NCBI GenBank assembly: GCA_039818205.1
Contig: JBCBUK010000001.1
Span: 480,001-544,000, forward strand
Direction: 5' to 3'
DNA length: 64,000 bases
Source: Verrucomicrobiota bacterium
GTDB taxonomy: Bacteria > Verrucomicrobiota > Verrucomicrobiia > Opitutales > Cerasicoccaceae
Shown here one piece after another: positions 30,001-42,000 of this stretch (positions are counted from its first letter, which is position 1; the number at the start of each line of letters is the position of its first letter). The position numbers are program-made.

Positions 30001-33000
30001 TTCCAATCGCCGTCGACCACCGCTCCAGAGTCGTCGTGATACCAGTAGAGCGTCTCATGAGGAGCACCCGTTTGCTCTCCAGACAAATAGGGCATCAGGT
30101 CGACACCATCAAGCTGGGTCGTGTCAGGGACGGCTCCATCCGCCGCGGCGAGAAATGTTGGATAGAAATCAAGTGTGCTCACCGCCTCGTCGTAAACCTG
30201 ACCGCCCTCGATCTGGTCTGGCCAACGCATAATAAACGGAACCCGGTTGCCGCCTTCAAAGTTGGATCCCTTATGGCCGCGTAGTGGGCCATTGCTTCCA
30301 AGGAGCTCCCGTGGCCAATCTTCTGGCCACAAGACGTTGTAAGCAAAGGTTGCTCCATTGTCGCTGGCGAAGGCAACGATCGTATCTTCAGCAAGTCCAA
30401 GGCGGTCCAAGGCCTCAAGCACCTTGCCGATATTCTCATCCATAGATATCAGCATAGCGCCGTAAAGTTTGGTTGCTTCAGTCTCGAGGTGGGCAACCTC
30501 AGGCTGGTGGCTAATTTTTGCCTGCATCGGACTATGAGGGGCATTGAATGCCAGGTAGAAGAAGAATGGATCGTCCTTGTGCTCCTCAATAAACTCAACT
30601 GCCTGCCTACCGAGGCGATCGGTTAGATATTCATCCCCCTCGCGCTCTGGGCCCCAAAGTATTCGCTTATGGCCACCTCGTGCATTTGGTTCATCGACGC
30701 CGTTGTAGGTGCCATCCTCGTTCGGGAAATACTCACCACCAAACGCCATGATCGACTGATACTCGTCAAAGGTGGTATTCGGATAGCAAGGCATGTTCGA
30801 CTTCCCAACCATACCCGTAACGTAGCCATTGGCGCTCAAAGCCTGATTCACCAGCAATTGTCCCTTGGGAATGCGATTATCAGTCAAAGTCTCTGTCTTA
30901 CCGTTCCTCAGGTCACTCCATGTATCTGGGTTCCACTGAACACCAAGTTTCTGCTGATACATCCCAGTCAATAGACCAAACCGACTGGGGCCACACGCGG
31001 ATGCAGTCACGTATCCCTGGGTGAATCGAACGCCTTCCTCTGCCAATCGGTCGATGTTTGGCGTCGGGACCAAATTGTCATATCCGTAACAACCAGCGTC
31101 ACCATACCCCATATCATCAGCGTAGATCAGGATGATATTGGGCTTTCGAGCCGATGCCACGGACAACAGAATAACTGAAAAGGCGATTAGAAAGAATCTC
31201 ATAGGTTTCAAATGCGGTAAGAAATAACGGGTAACTATAGTCTATTTCAACGGGCAATCATATCCTTTGTTGCTATAAAAAGATATAAACCAATTGGACT
31301 AGATAACCTTATTTCGAAGCGAACGAGCTGACCTTTTCGTCTCCGCAACCCGTGACACTCCATGCTTCAAGTAGAATATTTCGATTAGGCTATTCCAATA
31401 CTGCAATAAACTGACGGGCTTTCTAAACGACCCGACTCGAATGAATGGAAACAATATAACACCAAGAATCTCTACCGAATAGTTCCAAATGCGTATAACA
31501 GATATACATTCACGCCACTCCCAAATCATACCCAGCATCGAGCATAACAAAACCGACCATTTCTCGAATCATCGAGGACACAAGTGAATCAACAAGATTT
31601 CCACAGCTTATCCATTAACCAAAAATAACACAAACAGGACCTGGATAACTAATTCATCAGATCACCAAACGGGCTTACACCACCTCATGGTCGCACACTA
31701 GGCGGATGCCCAAAATGCGCCTTATACGCACGACTGAAATCATTGAAATGATGATATCCAAGGAGGAAAGCGACTTCCTTTACCTGCATCCCCCGTTCAT
31801 TCAACATGCGCGCAGCATGATCCATGCGCAGACAATGAAAGAAATCTGCCGGACTTCGATTAGTGGCTGCCTTGAACAATCGATACAGCGATGACTGGGA
31901 AACATCCAGATAGTCACACAAACGAGCAATCGGCTCCTTACTATCTAGGTGCGTCTTCATCCATTGTTGCGCCTGCTGAAACCGCTTCTCACTCTGGTCA
32001 CCCCCGGCCTCTGATTCAATCAGTCGCTCAACTAGGATCTCAAAAATCAATCGACACCCGTGCAGGTATTTAAGCGTTCGTTCATTGTAGTCGAGGACCT
32101 CGCGCCGGCATTGATTATGATTCTGCCGAAACGGCTGGGACTTACCGCGTGGTATCCGCCGAATAAAATGTCCATCACGATCGGCATTCGGAGAAAAATC
32201 GCTGCTAAACTCGGTCCACATCCATTGCAGAAATTTGCAGTTACTATCATCGATTGAAGCCCAGCCAAACGGACAATCCGGGCCGATAAAAACCAACTGC
32301 CTCGGTGCCAATCGCACCGTCTTCCCACGAATCACCATGCTTGGCGTCCCTTCTTCGATCACCGTGCAAACCCAGCCATCGTGCTGACATTCCGGCAAAA
32401 ACTCTTTGCTGAAATCACGCCTCCCCCAAGCCAAGTATCCCAGCTGGGACCCGGAATCCGCGTCTGCCTTCCAGAAAGAGCGATCTTTTGTCGGCAAGTA
32501 GAGACTTCTGTAATCGGTTTCCAATATAGCATCATTAGTCAAATGATTTTCGAGGCAATATCAAGCTATTTGCCAATTACAAACGCCTATGGTGTCGTTA
32601 AGGAATGGTGATCGGAGCCTCCGCAGCTCCCATAAGCCCCACGCAATGCAATGAGCACCCTTACCGCAGAGAAAGAACGCTTGCCCAACGACCCACCGGT
32701 CCAACCGATGGACTACAGTTTGATCGGCACGGAATCCAAACGGGCAATCGAACAAGGCTTAGCCGAGGCGGATTGGTACACGACACCCATTCCGCGAGAA
32801 GAGCTGAAACAACTGCTCACACGAAGAGATTGGCCCGCAATTCGCGACTGCTTCATATACTTTGGGCTGATTGCTTTTTTCGGCGTAGCCACCTACAGCC
32901 TTTGGGGAAGCTGGTGGGCCTTCCTACCAATGATGGCATACGGAATCCTTTGGGCCTCAGCCTCGGATGCCCGCTGGCATGAATCCAGCCACGGCACGGC

Positions 33001-39000: not shown

Positions 39001-42000
39001 CGGTGGCATGTTTGGCTCAGCGACGACTTTGGTCGCGGAGTCTATTCCGGGAAGGTTCCGCCCGGTTGCGCTCGGGGCGCTGCAAACTCTCGCCGCCCTA
39101 GGCAATATCATGGGCTCGATGGTCTCGCTCGTTATTCCCCCAAGTGCTACCGAAACGTTCATCGGATTTGAAGGTTGGCGCACGCTCTTCTTTATCGGAA
39201 TAATCCCAGCGCTTCTCGTTGCTCCCATGCTCGGCTTTTTGAAGGAACCTGAGCCATGGATCAAAATGAAGGAGGACCTCCGCAAAGGGGTTACAGGGAC
39301 AAAAGCGGGCTCACCAATCGAAATGTTTCGCCATCCCACTTGGCGCAAGCACGCCTTGATCGGCCTCTTCCTTGGCGTCGCTGGTATGGTTGGTCTTTGG
39401 GGTATCGGGTTCTTCTCACCGGAACTCATCTCGACAGCACTTGAGGGCGAACCACAGGACAAGATCGATCGGGTCCGAGCTTGGGGAACCGCGCTACAAG
39501 ACATTGGCTCCTTCTTGGGTATGGCGGCCTTTACCACGATCGCAACGATGCTCAGTCGTCGGCTCGCTTTCCTCATGTCGTTCACGCTTTGCTTCGTGAC
39601 TACCGTATTCGTATTCAACTCCCTGAATTCAGCATCCGACGCCTACTGGATGCTCCCAATAATGGGATTTGCTCAGCTCTCATTGTTCGCCGGTTACTCC
39701 ATATATTTCCCCGAACTTTTCCCGACCCGCTTGCGTGGAACCGGCGTTGGATTCTGCTATAATACCGTACGATATCTTGCCGCACCGGCTCCAATCCTAC
39801 TCGGCTACCTCAGCACTTTGCTGCCCTTCAGAATCGCCGCAAGTATCATGGCCGGTATTTACATCATGGGAATCATCGCACTTATCTGGGCACCTGAAAC
39901 GAAAGGCAAAGCCCTGCCTGAGGACGACTAGTCACCACGGCTCAGTGGAACCACACACCACTTCCTAACGCGGGCGCTCGGCGAACCTGCCATCTGGAAA
40001 TCTGCGAACCCAACTTGTAAACAGTTTGCTAAAAAATGACCATAAGCAGAAGCCCTCATTGTTTTAGATGGAAACAAACCATATAATACACGTGTTAAGT
40101 TCGAACTGACCCCCCAATATACAGCCCTCCCCAATATACGGTCCGAACACCTATCCTGCCTCCCCTAACTCTCAACCCCTGAAAACGTATGAGAAAAAAC
40201 CGTCTCGTATGGGCTGTACCTGTGTGCTGTCTCATCGCATCACTATCGACTACCTCAATGCACGCGGCAACGCGTTACCTCTCGAACTATTCCGGCGACT
40301 TCAAATCACGCATGACCGCTGCGGTCAATCAGTCCAGCAGTGGCGACGTGATTAGCGTCAACGTAAACCTCAATGCAAATAGTCCCTACACACTGACCAA
40401 GAGCGGCCTAACCTTGACCGGCAACGGAACAATAACCGCAAACGGCAGCAAAATACTCAACCTAAAGGCAAGCAATACCACCATCAAGAACATCACGTTT
40501 AATGGTGGAACCCGCACGATTGATGTTACCTCAAATGGAACCCTGAACAACATCACCTTTGACAATGTGAAGGTGAAAAACGGGCCTTACCGAGGCATTG
40601 GTTTCTATGAAACCAATATAAACAACATTACGGTCAAAAACTGTACCTTCACGAACAAACCGTTCTCTGTGGAGATCCATGACTGCGCGATGGCCACGAA
40701 TGTGACCATCACCAACAATACCTTCAACTCGAGTGATCATCAGGTTTCGCTCGATTGTGCCGACCTCGGGAACAACCTGAATCACAGCAACATCCGCATC
40801 ACTAACAACACCTTCAACGTGACGGCTCGCCATAACCTTGCGCTGGCAAACATGAAGGCCAGCCTAATCAAAGGGAATGTTATGAAAGGTGGAACCGCTG
40901 GCTACACCCAGTGTGTGCACATCGAAGACCGCACCCGAGGAGCCTACATCAAGGAAAACCAAATGACTAACTGGGGCAATGGAAGTGGCTCTGGCGATGC
41001 CGTGATCATCTACACAACCGATCGATTCGGTCACGGAACCGGCGCTCTCCTTACCCCACAACAAAAGCGCGCCTACGCATCTGGTCCCGTATCACTCGAG
41101 AATAATACGATCATTGGCGCCGGGCGGCATGGCGTGCTGATCAGCTACTTACAAGGGAAAGCCAACTTTTGGGGAAATAACCAAACCCTCAAAGGAAACA
41201 ACAAGGCGATCTTCAAGAGCAACATCGTGAATACCTCCCAGCTCAACATCGCAGATTCAACCAAGTTCAAAAACAATCGGACTTGGGGCGTCTTAAAGAA
41301 CTGGTCGCCCAGCGCAAGAAGCGGTTACGTCAACTTCTAGCAATACAATAACGCTATGGCGAAACACCTTCCGTTTTGGTTGGGCTTTGCTGCGCTTACA
41401 TTTCTCCTCGGGTTCTACACCCGAGGAGTTATTGCGACTGCGCCGCAAACGCCAAGCCCTTTGGTAATTTCCGATCTACCAATTCCATCGACCTCCGATG
41501 ATCGAGAAGACACTCACGTTGAACGCCTAGAGGCCGAACTCGAAACCGAATCGGCGCTCGAGCCGATTGATTTGGTGATCTTTGACCCCGATAACCCGGT
41601 GGAACGGCTGCAGGCACTTGAAACCGTCCGATACGAACTGCCAGGCTCCGCGTTCAACCGACTCGTTCCCGACGCATTCGACGATGAACATCATATTTCC
41701 GCGGAAATGCGGGCACTGATGGATCTATCCGAAGAAGAAACTGAGCAGCTAAATGGAATGCTCGACCGGTCAATGATGGAGCTCCGTGCTATCGAAGAAG
41801 CTCAGGTTGTCGCAAGAGTCGGAAAAAATGGCGAGCTTACGTTCACAATTCCTCCCTATCCAGACCAAGGGCTCAAAGTTCGGGCGGCACTTTTGCGGAA
41901 CATCGAATCAGGCCTGGGCGAATCACGCCGACACTTATTCGAAATGATGCTCATTCAAAAACCGTCTTCCTTTGGTAACTTCGGCAAGGACACCATCGCA

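Follow-up and report, generated by a model that had tools for sequence, protein, structure and literature searches.

A single-chain membrane di-iron oxygenase misnamed NqrF heads a sugar-type operon in a red-algal galactan locus and probably removes sugar methyl groups

Results and discussion

A gene within a polysaccharide degradation locus of a marine Verrucomicrobiota bacterium (Verrucomicrobiia; Opitutales; Cerasicoccaceae) encodes a 768-aa protein, P0001, in which a membrane di-iron oxygenase, a Rieske ferredoxin and an NqrF-like reductase are joined in one chain. Judging from sequence and genomic surroundings, P0001 probably removes methyl groups from seaweed sugars. The full proposal, that it is a self-sufficient di-iron monooxygenase in an AraC-controlled operon which O-demethylates an imported red-algal galactan sugar, appears to us about evenly balanced between right and wrong. 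The window, i.e. the whole stretch of DNA analyzed, comprises 64,000 nt (GCA_039818205.1, contig JBCBUK010000001.1, positions 480,001 to 544,000, forward strand) of a MAG that is 99.97% complete; coordinates are window positions, position 1 being its first letter.

Architecture of the fused oxygenase

32651..34957, + strand: single-chain oxygenase P0001, 768 aa (intact open frame; Pfam)
32651..33766, + strand: N-terminal membrane di-iron domain, residues 1 to about 372 (Pfam FA_desaturase 87-326)
33788..34084, + strand: Rieske [2Fe-2S] ferredoxin domain, residues about 380-478 (Pfam Rieske 380-467)
34121..34954, + strand: NqrF-like FAD/NAD(H) reductase domain, residues about 491-768 (TIGR01941, PDB 2r6h)

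The three-part architecture described in an earlier note on this DNA was recovered in the open frame, with FA_desaturase (E 9.5e-33), Rieske (4.7e-17), FAD_binding_6 (552-629) and NAD_binding_1 (640-749) domains; the gene is single-copy across the genome. The translated N-terminal domain carries histidine boxes HESSH (110-114), HTRHH (146-150) and HLEHH (296-300), invariant in two alignments of 26 and 30 homologues, and two helical hairpins (61-107 and 208-263), with a membrane anchor predicted to comprise four helices. An AF2 model of this domain (pLDDT 75, pTM 0.73) has its nearest fold match in 8xks_K (Z 16.8, 293 aligned) and also matches FtAlkB (8sbb) over 255 aligned residues. Among the 26 aligned homologues, the Rieske ligands C421, H423, C440 and H443 are invariant, as are R571/Y573/S574, G641-G645/P648 and C739-G740-P741 of the reductase domain. 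PDB sequence matches of P0001 are limited to the Rieske part (5bok 2.2e-21, 2qpz 1.3e-19) and residues 488-768 (NqrF FAD domain, 2r6h, 3e-78). These observations establish the architecture, the intact cofactor motifs and the fold class.

The label “NqrF” is an artefact of the reductase half, which alone passes the nqrF cut-off. That P0001 is a genuine NqrF, the subunit through which the sodium-pumping NADH:quinone reductase oxidises NADH, would be suggested by its TIGR01941 score (321-324 bits, cut-off 295) and by the sources of homologues, which, among the matches listed, use NqrF or “MocE subfamily Rieske” where they give a name. However, the match is restricted to model positions 129-403 of 405; because positions 1-128 are unmatched, P0001 lacks NqrF’s own N-terminal part, in whose place stand 490 residues of oxygenase and Rieske. 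The adjoining genes are not nqr genes, a profile search of the genome found no nqrA, and neither a full nqrF nor any other nqrF above cut-off is present. What the protein contains, together with the lack of nqrA, refutes this identity, to which we assign next to no probability; the misnaming that had been noted earlier stems from the reductase half.

A sugar-type operon beside a divergent AraC regulator

31685..32542, - strand: AraC-family regulator, divergent from the operon (HTH_18 1.1e-21, HTH_AraC)
32543..32650, no strand: divergent intergenic region, 108 nt, presumed promoter/operator (from coordinates)
34976..35956, + strand: aldo-keto reductase, 326 aa (Aldo_ket_red 2.2e-38)
35976..36671, + strand: CE4-like (polysaccharide-deacetylase fold) protein, about 231 aa (Polysacc_deac_1 2.8e-10)
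36664..37689, + strand: GFO/IDH/MocA-family NAD dehydrogenase, 341 aa (Pfam GFO_IDH_MocA)
37686..38615, + strand: AP_endonuc_2 (xylose-isomerase-like TIM barrel) protein, 309 aa (Pfam 4.9e-23)
38612..39931, + strand: MFS importer, 439 aa, last gene of the operon (MFS_1 1.6e-29, Sugar_tr 5.3e-23)

The oxygenase gene is followed, tightly packed and in the order listed, by the aldo-keto reductase, CE4-like, GFO, AP_endonuc_2 and MFS genes. The earlier note had described a sugar-type operon here, and all six genes and the divergent regulator were found again at the positions it gave, with matching Pfam families; operon structure and genomic context are thus direct observations. The intergenic region holds no sigma-70 consensus match, and the whole stretch is no richer in such sites than shuffles. 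For the CE4-like gene the mechanical ORF spans 35823-36671, the alignment with relative L004 opens at residue 52 and a GTG stands at 35976, which is likely the true start.

In the clade of the window (with loci L004, L007 and L071; SH-aLRT 87), AraC, GFO, AP_endonuc_2 and carrier genes accompany the fused gene in 4/4 members, and the aldo-keto reductase and CE4-like genes in 3/4. Orthologues of the regulator are found at the corresponding position in L004 (61% identity), L071 (43%) and L007 (38%); the aldo-keto reductase has orthologues behind the oxygenase in L004 (70%) and L007 (63%) and weaker ones in L013 and L027. The CE4-like protein has orthologues in L004 (59%) and L007 (54%), the GFO dehydrogenase in L004 (63%), L071 (57%) and L007 (56%), and the AP_endonuc_2 protein in L004 (67%), L071 (66%) and L007 (64%), while the MFS slot is taken by an SSF carrier in L004 and an Nramp-like carrier in L007 and L071. 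Weak PDB matches of the aldo-keto reductase include “L-galactose dehydrogenase” 9w6y (1.8e-12) among the top three; the AP_endonuc_2 protein is without match in a PDB sequence search and falls solely in generic “sugar phosphate isomerase/epimerase” clusters of the Atlas.

This setting bears on whether P0001 modifies lipids, by desaturating or hydroxylating a fatty acid, sphingolipid, hopanoid or carotenoid, and neighbors sugar genes by chance. The Pfam FA_desaturase assignment, a weak NCBIfam DesB match (4e-11) and the membrane nature of the enzyme are consistent with such a role. Against it stand the translational coupling to sugar-type enzymes and a carrier under AraC, kept in all four clade members, the sugar genes that adjoin the fused gene in other clades too, and a patchy spread, unlike that of a housekeeping lipid enzyme, over 27/401 genomes of a phylum sample. 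We regard a lipid role as very improbable.

The surrounding red-algal galactan locus

12088-13188: second GH117-like gene
15301..31211, - strand: upstream context block of five sulfatases, SSF carrier, DUF4405 and 1164-aa FAD_oxidored protein (Pfam)
20161-21801, - strand: sulfatase (Pfam)
21686-23518, - strand: sulfatase (Pfam)
23515-24999, - strand: sulfatase (Pfam)
29805-31211, - strand: sulfatase (Pfam)
59704-60780, - strand: GH117 3,6-anhydro-alpha-L-galactosidase (PDB 3r4y 3.1e-161, 3p2n 1.5e-135)
60784-62640, - strand: GH86-type porphyranase (Pfam BPA_C 7.7e-28, Porphyrn_cat_1 4.6e-16)

The window is a red-algal galactan (agar/porphyran) degradation locus, with nine sulfatases, two GH117 and one GH86 in all. 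Its upstream block, which also holds an XylR/AraC hybrid regulator on the + strand, includes the four sulfatases previously reported beside the operon. The closest relative, a Lentimonas MAG, has the same operon between 4 + 3 sulfatases and a GH117 on the same contig; counterparts of the sulfatases at 20161-21801, 23515-24999 and, downstream, 58083-59711 flank its operon at 49-60% identity. With GH86 and GH117 genes in the window and synteny recurring in a second genome, the algal-glycan link now exceeds sulfatase adjacency, the two glycoside hydrolases being tied to the operon by position, 20-27 kb away. Elsewhere the genome has a canonical anhydrogalactose route, with a cycloisomerase (7e-191 to 5xd7) adjoining an aldehyde dehydrogenase, and the P450/ferredoxin/ADH set already noted on contig 6: the P450 matches 6G5O/6G5Q at 3e-108 and is adjoined by ferredoxin and Zn-ADH genes. 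A P450 is also present in the Lentimonas genome, and genome G036 holds one 51% identical to that of the window genome.

Distribution and neighbors of the fused family

A homologue search gave 3557 matches among 8000 scored (3554 at E<=1e-40 in the earlier account). The 120 listed, i.e. the query and 119 others at 58-69% identity and about 750-930 aa, all show FA_desaturase, Rieske and NAD_binding_1 among their precomputed Pfam assignments. Soil, bog and freshwater members of the Acidobacteriota, Verrucomicrobiota and Chloroflexota supply most relatives; contrary to the earlier marine framing, the fused family is not specific to marine degraders. Nor are full-length matches missing from the order, as a survey of 40 Opitutales genomes had suggested: 12 genomes labelled “same order” in the phylum sample match over residues about 14-768. 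Across 80 fetched loci, sugar-related neighbors in other clades include a divergent AP_endonuc_2 barrel (23), aldose 1-epimerase (17) and RhaT (6), and URO-D-family methyltransferase and/or B12-binding genes adjoin the fused gene at four (L039, L057, L051, L008), a hint of methyl or C1 chemistry. The aldose-epimerase and corrinoid neighbors belong to clades outside that of the window, at 56-60% identity to P0001.

Kinship with MocD and MocE, and a reductase unlike MocF

The N-terminal domain of P0001 is 50-54% identical (E about 1e-110, over about 340-360 residues) to unfused rhizobial genes adjoining a “MocE family” ferredoxin and a reductase, in line with the MocD kinship claimed earlier; such mocD-named genes figure in passages of PMC3538637 and PMC5789663. 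The comparison covered 287 plasmid records, one annotated “mocD”, the rhizopine-locus MocD itself lying outside the set. Passages of PMC3538637, PMC5789663, PMC10107442 and PMC5132102 describe such rhizobial clusters as mocDEF of rhizopine (3-O-methyl-scyllo-inosamine) catabolism; the assignment is based on genetics and, as cited in later papers, its target is the O-methyl group. MocE is the best family of the Rieske domain, although TIGR02377 MocE_fam_FeS gives 123.2 bits, below the cut-off of 136.15. Because the reductase beside the unfused pairs is of the Pyr_redox_2 + Reductase_C type, P0001 is MocD plus MocE with a non-homologous reductase; of the fused MocDEF equivalent that had been suggested, the MocD and MocE parts hold, and the MocF part gives way to an FNR/NqrF-type domain.

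Following the MocDEF model further, P0001 could be a cyclitol O-demethylase of rhizopine or pinitol type, in which case the GFO protein would be an inositol dehydrogenase resembling MocA/IolG, and the AP_endonuc_2 protein would resemble MocC/IolE. The trio of oxygenase, GFO and AP_endonuc_2 parallels MocD/E, MocA and MocC, TIM-barrel neighbors of this kind are tied to inositol derivatives in a passage of PMC3538637, and the GFO protein matches PDB inositol dehydrogenases (about 1e-15 to 1e-19) besides 3e18 (2.7e-34) and DgpA2 9m37 (9.5e-26). However, with 76 bits (2e-21) it stays below the iolG model's cut-off of 355, and no IolE match was obtained for the AP_endonuc_2 protein, earlier called IolE/MocC-type. 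Neither iolD nor iolE was found above cut-off in the genome, and these results leave the cyclitol half of the “sugar or cyclitol” operon weak while the sugar half stands. IolD is required for rhizopine use according to a passage of PMC5789663. The locus also lacks a MocB-type binding protein and a MocR regulator, and galactan-degrading genes lie all around. A cyclitol substrate is thus improbable.

Proposed O-demethylation of a galactan sugar

The electron path, the use of a soluble sugar, its O-demethylation and its identity are inferred, as follows. P0001 would be a self-sufficient class-III (membrane, histidine-box) di-iron monooxygenase, leading an AraC-controlled, translationally coupled six-gene operon. 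By its domain families, NADH would reduce the FAD bound in the FNR/NqrF-like domain at the C-terminus, and the fused Rieske [2Fe-2S] domain would relay single electrons to the di-iron centre, where O2 would be activated at the cytoplasmic face of the four-helix membrane anchor. The operon would import a small modified sugar freed from red-algal sulfated galactan (agar/porphyran) for conversion in the cytoplasm. P0001 would most probably hydroxylate its O-methyl group, the resulting hemiacetal yielding formaldehyde and a free sugar hydroxyl, and the product may then be remodelled by the GFO dehydrogenase, AP_endonuc_2 barrel, aldo-keto reductase and CE4-like hydrolase. A 6-O-methyl-D-galactose demethylase-type P450 is encoded both in this genome and in that of the nearest relative, so that P0001 probably acts on a different methylated sugar of the galactan; 6-O-methyl-galactose itself is possible.

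Counting against O-demethylation, enzymes of the FA_desaturase family also desaturate and hydroxylate C-H bonds, the downstream enzymes match generic families only, and the operon contains no obvious formaldehyde-handling gene. The same holds for the Rieske score below the MocE cut-off, for the purely positional tie to GH86 and GH117, and for the placement of the aldose-epimerase and corrinoid neighbors in other clades. P0001 may instead oxidise a sugar elsewhere than at a methyl ether, by C6-methyl hydroxylation of a 6-deoxy sugar, by desaturation, or by oxidatively opening some other ether or ketal of red-algal galactans such as the 3,6-anhydro bridge or the pyruvate ketal, and the aldo-keto reductase would reduce the aldehyde formed. 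The broad chemistry among fold matches (AlkB terminal hydroxylation and desaturases) agrees with this, as do the RhaT-type (rhamnose-proton symporter family) carriers at six of the 80 loci, the aldo-keto reductase directly 3' of the oxygenase in three of four clade members, and the anhydrogalactose-releasing GH117 in the window. However, the canonical anhydrogalactose route is already in the genome, the sole relatives with genetic data target an O-methyl group in the papers cited above, and the corrinoid methyltransferase neighbors suggest methyl groups. We consider such oxidation unlikely, if the strongest competitor to O-demethylation.

Comparison with known systems

MocD/MocE/MocF, the “ferredoxin oxygenase” that serves rhizopine catabolism, and the similar clusters of rhizobia, Burkholderia and Pseudomonas syringae share with P0001 the oxygenase subfamily and a MocE-kind Rieske ferredoxin; as at the P0001 locus, a TIM barrel of the AP_endonuc_2 family, a GFO dehydrogenase, and regulators and carriers of sugar type stand nearby. 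These systems differ in employing three proteins rather than one chain, a Pyr_redox_2/Reductase_C rather than an FNR/NqrF-type reductase, LacI or MocR rather than AraC, and ABC rather than MFS carriers. A PanB-like hydroxymethyltransferase, a further hint of methyl or C1 chemistry, follows the unfused clusters and is absent from the P0001 locus, whose host is a marine Opitutales MAG with a galactan-degrading locus. NqrF of Na+-NQR has a C-terminal FAD/NADH domain about 47-50% identical to that of P0001, which lacks NqrF’s N-terminal membrane helix and plant-type [2Fe-2S] domain and whose genome has no nqr operon.

Self-sufficient class-III membrane di-iron monooxygenases with partners in-chain are also represented by “ferr_ferrR_AlkB”, a three-domain fusion of ferredoxin reductase, ferredoxin and AlkB, and by AlkB-rubredoxin fusions, which, like the P0001 family, are routinely misannotated (passages of PMC8918992). 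The P0001 fold is related to AlkB (Z 8.5), yet identity to FtAlkB is 14% over the aligned residues; the redox domains of ferr_ferrR_AlkB are N-terminal with a non-Rieske ferredoxin, whereas in P0001 they are C-terminal, Rieske then FNR; the predicted anchor of P0001 differs too, in having four helices; and AlkB acts on alkanes, whereas a sugar is proposed here. The 6-O-methyl-D-galactose demethylase P450ZoGa (6G5O/6G5Q) performs the kind of reaction proposed for P0001, O2-dependent sugar O-demethylation yielding formaldehyde, in the same porphyran/agar degradation setting, and has a close homologue in the genome of P0001. P450ZoGa is a soluble haem-thiolate enzyme of demonstrated activity, with separate ferredoxin and reductase partners and an ADH, whereas P0001 is an unrelated membrane di-iron protein of predicted activity with its partners fused in one chain. 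To these systems the window adds a red-algal galactan locus, with a P450 demethylase set and an anhydrogalactose route in the same genome.

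Organization of the fused oxygenase operon

An ORF map and a Pfam scan of the window recovered every gene that the earlier note had placed in the operon of P0001, a 768-aa fused oxygenase, together with the four sulfatases that it had described upstream. The genes, in window coordinates, are as follows.

31685-32542, minus strand: AraC regulator gene (ORF map, Pfam)
32651-34957, plus strand: P0001, 768 aa, with FA_desaturase 87-326 (9.5e-33), Rieske 380-467, FAD_binding_6 552-629 and NAD_binding_1 640-749
34976-35956, directly 3' of P0001: aldo-keto reductase (AKR; Pfam)
Probably 35976-36671, mechanical ORF start 35823: Polysacc_deac_1 (CE4-like) gene (Pfam, alignment)
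36664-37689: GFO_IDH_MocA (GFO) dehydrogenase (Pfam)
37686-38615: AP_endonuc_2 barrel (Pfam)
38612-39931: MFS carrier (Pfam)

The AraC and P0001 genes are divergent and 108 nt apart. From P0001 onward, the first two gaps measure 18 and about 19 nt and the next three junctions overlap by 8, 4 and 4 nt, so that the genes form a single unit with translational coupling. As called mechanically, the deacetylase-like ORF runs into the aldo-keto reductase gene; because the orthologue from a Lentimonas MAG aligns from residue 52, where a GTG lies at 35976, the gene probably begins there. A scan for promoter and terminator consensus sites found them no more common than in shuffled sequence. Among the sequencing runs listed there is none of RNA, only a DNA run from a marine metagenome, from which the genome may derive. 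Compared with PDB sequences, the downstream enzymes gave matches that were generic, weak or absent, and in the ESM Atlas they fell only into "sugar phosphate isomerase/epimerase" and "polysaccharide deacetylase" clusters.

Directly after the operon, ORFs of 383, 271, 285 and 1232 aa (40189-46781) precede two further sulfatases. None of the four matches Pfam at E 0.01, and the first three also find no match in NCBIfam.

P0001 is a three-part oxygenase and not NqrF

The N-terminal part of P0001 scores 114.5 bits against Pfam FA_desaturase (cut-off 29.7, residues 87-326), and by this score the protein belongs among the class-III membrane di-iron enzymes, a group including desaturases, AlkB, XylM and MocD. 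The histidine boxes of this class are defined as HX3-4H, HX2-3HH and HX2-3HH, and all three are found in the translation of P0001, as HESSH at 110, HTRHH at 146 and HLEHH at 296. The eight box histidines, together with H263 and H273, are invariant in sets of 26 and of 30 homologues; H193 is invariant in the 26 aligned full-length homologues. Residues 1-372 were modelled with AlphaFold on a 30-sequence alignment (pLDDT 75, pTM 0.73), and this model and the hydropathy both give two helical hairpins, at 61-107 and 208-263. By VIA-align, the solved structure closest to the model is a chain from a complex, 8xks_K (Z 16.8, rmsd 3.7 over 293 residues), followed by the alkane hydroxylase FtAlkB 8sbb (Z 8.5, 255 aligned, rmsd 5.0; Foldseek 2e-3), and SCD1 4ymk is distant, with a Z of only 3.6. 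The predicted fold of this domain resembles that of solved class-III di-iron members.

In the same 26 full-length homologues the Rieske ligands C421, H423, C440 and H443 are invariant. The top Rieske family for this part is TIGR02377 (MocE family), matched over the whole model length at 123.2 bits (E 3.6e-36), a score under the curated cut-off of 136.15. The reductase part consists of FAD_binding_6 and NAD_binding_1 and is of the NqrF-like type in both Pfam and NCBIfam. Its R571-x-Y573-S574, G641-G642-G643-x-G645-x-x-P648 and C739-G740-P741 motifs, which we take to bind FAD and NAD as in the FNR family, are likewise invariant in the 26 homologues. The chain is thus intact and, to judge from its motifs, looks competent.

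A true NqrF was considered and ruled out. The NCBIfam nqrF equivalog (TIGR01941) gives P0001 a score of 321 bits, which passes the cut-off of 295; this match covers only model positions 129-403 of 405 and lacks the N-terminal helix and plant-type 2Fe-2S domain of a full-length NqrF, and PDB NqrF matches are confined to residues 488-768. P0001 is the sole nqrF match above cut-off in a genome that is 99.97% complete, the whole of which holds no match to nqrA (TIGR01936). Around P0001 there is no nqrABCDEF operon, the neighbors being sugar genes by Pfam. Since only the reductase half matches and nqrA is missing genome-wide, the NqrF label is an artefact and comes from a match that is strong but partial. 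Named homologues among the matches listed bear it too. The label is thus demonstrably wrong and propagates, and genomes may seem to own a sodium-pumping respiratory complex that is absent from them.

Distribution and genomic neighborhoods of the family

The earlier homologue search, when repeated, again gave a very large family, with 3557 matches among 8000 scored. The 120 matches listed (the query and 119 others, 58-69% identical) all combine FA_desaturase, Rieske and NAD_binding_1, and they include the cultured carriers Algisphaera agarilytica, Luteolibacter algae, Roseibacillus persicicus and Rubellicoccus peritrichatus. An exhaustive representative search returned 565 representatives at E <= 1e-30, among them two-domain oxygenase-Rieske forms of about 480-490 aa, and 596 stretches were confirmed among species-representative genomes. 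The best 80 of these 596 loci belong mostly to MAGs of Verrucomicrobiota, Acidobacteriota, Chloroflexota, Planctomycetota, Bacteroidota and Kiritimatiellia, and their record titles are largely those of soil, bog and lake sampling projects. In a phylum sample of 401 genomes, a P0001-type gene was found in 27, including this one, and in neither of the two from the same family. Twelve genomes of the same order in this sample have full-length matches, contrary to the earlier report of none in 40 other Opitutales genomes.

A tree built from 69 full-length proteins, after 3 of 72 had been left out as shorter than 700 aa, mixes phyla, with Acidobacteriaceae, for example, nested within Verrucomicrobiota. 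P0001 groups with the oxygenases of L004, the Lentimonas MAG locus, and of two further loci, L007 and L071 (SH-aLRT 87), adjoining two Acidobacteriota sequences. We clustered the ORFs of the best 80 of the 596 loci and of the window by BLASTP and searched a single member of every recurrent cluster against Pfam. Among these loci the window-type operon is confined to the clade of P0001, whose operon proteins are 54-70% identical to those of the window and are ordered as follows.

L004: AraC, oxygenase, AKR, CE4, GFO, AP_endonuc_2, SSF
L007: as L004, with an Nramp-like carrier instead
L071: cytochrome c, 3-keto-disaccharide hydrolase, oxygenase, GFO, AP_endonuc_2, Nramp-like carrier, AP_endonuc_2

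The most frequent neighbor in other clades, again among the best 80 loci, is a protein of roughly 300 aa (cluster 1), found directly downstream of the oxygenase in 23 of them (16 closely related, 7 distant). It has no Pfam match at 1e-4. When E was relaxed to 1, AP_endonuc_2 was touched by 7 of 16 members (best 4.7e-4), and a profile reached AsbF 3dx5 at 0.04; with low certainty, it may be a divergent AP_endonuc_2-like TIM barrel. An aldose 1-epimerase lies directly upstream in 17 of the 80. Most of these epimerase and barrel neighbors belong to a large 40-sequence clade outside that of P0001, and they therefore bear on the family and not directly on P0001. Carriers of the MFS type occur in 9 of the 80 loci as well as in the window, and those of the RhaT family in 6; AraC regulators number 24 genes in three clusters. 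Four of the 80 carry URO-D-family and/or B12-binding genes (L039 with four plus one, L057, L051, L008), both of them component types of corrinoid O-demethylase systems. In L039:1-10000, an Anaerolineae MAG, and L057:1-3000, a MAG labelled Syntrophothermus, URO-D-family methyltransferase sets and a B12-binding gene directly precede the fused oxygenase, and oxygen-free and oxygen-dependent demethylation systems may stand side by side there.

A red-algal galactan setting

Outside the operon, the window holds nine sulfatases by Pfam, and it is an agar/porphyran utilization region because of three glycoside hydrolase genes, given here with the relevant loci on contig 6 of the same genome.

60784-62640, minus strand: GH86-type porphyranase
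59704-60780, minus strand: GH117 anhydrogalactosidase (PDB 3r4y 3e-161, 3p2n 1.5e-135)
12088-13188, minus strand: second GH117-like gene
Contig 6, 179424-182124: P450, 2Fe-2S ferredoxin, Zn-ADH and esterase
Contig 6, about 201500-204700: anhydrogalactonate cycloisomerase (7e-191 to 5xd7) and aldehyde dehydrogenase, about 21 kb from the P450

The P450, the only one in the genome, matches 6G5O/6G5Q at 3e-108; these are described as structures of the Zobellia 6-O-methyl-D-galactose demethylase, an activity reported as biochemically established (PMC6292453). With these known routes present on contig 6, the organism is equipped for agar/porphyran without the fused oxygenase, which is thus an addition. 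The Lentimonas MAG repeats the setting: its operon is flanked by 4 + 3 sulfatases, of which three have counterparts in the window at 49-60% identity, one of its two GH117 genes shares the contig of the operon, and its P450, split across two contig ends, is 51% identical to that of this genome.

Several other features of the window deserve mention. At 9557-11835 (minus strand), a 3-keto-disaccharide hydrolase (DUF1080-type) adjoins a TAT-signal GFO dehydrogenase, and the two resemble a periplasmic pair for glycoside 3-oxidation; a hydrolase of similar kind lies upstream of the L071 oxygenase. A TctABC tricarboxylate-type transporter, an Iso_dh-family dehydrogenase, a GntR/FCD regulator and an SBD_N/NBD_C kinase-like protein (835-8522) form an acid-sugar module unrelated to the P0001 operon. 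The TRAP transporter DctPQM with KduI/IolB-family, BNR_4 and DUF4861 proteins (50817-56796, minus strand) probably serves the use of uronates or unsaturated sugars. Amid the sulfatase block (25134-29766, minus strand), a 1164-aa Laminin_G_3, FAD_oxidored (PF12831, 5e-80) and F5/8 type C protein comes before a DUF4405 membrane protein of 360 aa. Two neighboring sulfatases have mechanical ORFs that overlap by 116 nt (21686-21801), and the downstream one of the pair (20161-21801) probably starts later than its ORF.

Proposed function

P0001 is a real, misnamed enzyme, and a function in sugar demethylation is plausible from sequence and context. Its domain set would give a self-sufficient electron chain from NADH through FAD and the Rieske cluster to the di-iron center. 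The operon content suggests a small imported sugar as substrate, and the locus a red-algal galactan as its source. Besides 6-O-methyl-D-galactose, agars and porphyran bear 2-O-methyl-anhydrogalactose and methylated L-galactose. If the family's sole genetic precedent and the C1-related neighbors elsewhere are a guide, the reaction would remove a methyl ether and release formaldehyde. The co-occurrence of fused oxygenase and P450 in both of the two genomes examined suggests that their specificities may differ. Oxidative opening of the anhydrogalactose bridge was rejected as the main role of P0001 and retained only as part of a rival reading, being unnecessary where contig 6 already encodes the canonical pair of dehydrogenase and cycloisomerase. 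The earlier note had proposed a sugar or cyclitol substrate; the sugar is retained, and the cyclitol loses ground because neither iolD nor iolE of the inositol pathway expected with a rhizopine locus scores above cut-off in the genome and the iolG model falls far below its own.

We advance, as a tentative and rather doubtful possibility, that MocD-type membrane di-iron oxygenases are a second, P450-independent class of carbohydrate O-demethylation enzymes, of which one clade was drawn into agar/porphyran loci in marine Verrucomicrobiota and Planctomycetota. Its role in these loci would be to remove methyl ethers beyond the reach of the P450 (e.g. on L-galactose or anhydrogalactose units) and to pass the product into an undescribed AKR/CE4-like/GFO/AP_endonuc_2 route. 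More speculatively, from a weak PDB lead, the aldo-keto reductase could be an L-galactose-type 1-dehydrogenase and the later enzymes a lactone/aldonate route.

Methyl ethers hinder the digestion of algal and plant sugars, and the P0001 family, widespread at 3557 scored matches and 596 confirmed stretches, could offer a second way of removing them that would require NADH and O2 only, with no separate redox partners. If true, this would account for methylated-sugar use by soil and marine Verrucomicrobiota, Acidobacteriota and Planctomycetota and would supply a one-gene biocatalyst. The window contributes a red-algal setting, a P450 route alongside the oxygenase, the lack of an inositol pathway and an operon specific to its clade, and it offers a testable case, a red-algal galactan locus with a P450 route in the same genome for comparison.

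Comparison with known systems

The sole enzyme described as shown to demethylate a carbohydrate in marine degraders is the P450 (PMC6292453, PMC10033563, PMC9400963). P0001 differs from such P450ZoGa-type demethylases in having no p450 domain by Pfam. A literature search, which covered few subscription journals, turned up no paper describing the fused protein, and none on MocD-type demethylases of sugars in algal degraders. Among class-III di-iron enzymes, three-domain AlkB fusions are described as self-sufficient, active and likewise misannotated (PMC8918992). In these ferr_ferrR_AlkB proteins, the same source places the reductase and the ferredoxin, which is of another type than that of P0001, at the N-terminus, whereas the order in P0001 is oxygenase, Rieske, reductase.

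Parts of P0001 resemble MocDEF. Its first 380 residues find matches in 287 plasmid records, mainly from Rhizobium/Sinorhizobium, at 50-54% identity (E about 1e-110), one of them annotated "mocD" in R. etli CIAT 652; this identity is to genes annotated or described as mocD, and not to the MocD of a proven rhizopine locus with mocCABR alongside. A plasmid match of lower identity (H84), tried as a genuine rhizopine locus, proved to be another LacI-type cluster. On the plasmids, the "fatty acid desaturase family protein" is encoded separately; next come a "MocE family 2Fe-2S ferredoxin" and, in most cases, a Pyr_redox_2/Reductase_C reductase and a PanB-like protein, with a divergent LacI regulator and with TIM-barrel, GFO or ABC sugar-transport genes close by. 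The PanB-like "ketopantoate hydroxymethyltransferase" paralogue stands regularly 3' of the unfused genes (L001, L002 and L116, all rhizobial plasmid loci) and may be a link to one-carbon handling. Such clusters are termed mocDEF of rhizopine catabolism, a system described as established by genetics, and in Pseudomonas syringae mocDEF is said to adjoin a second xylose isomerase (PMC3538637, PMC5789663, PMC10107442, PMC5132102). The P0001 locus differs from a MocDEF locus in that it has neither a MocB-type binding protein nor a MocR-type regulator, and its GFO and AP_endonuc_2 proteins match at family level only. P0001 had been read as a one-chain equivalent of MocDEF; two of its parts are MocD-like and MocE-like, and the reading fails for the MocF-type reductase: the reductase beside the unfused pairs has Pyr_redox_2 and Reductase_C, whereas P0001 carries FAD_binding_6 and NAD_binding_1, and the fusion therefore joins MocD-like and MocE-like parts to a reductase of another, NqrF-like family.
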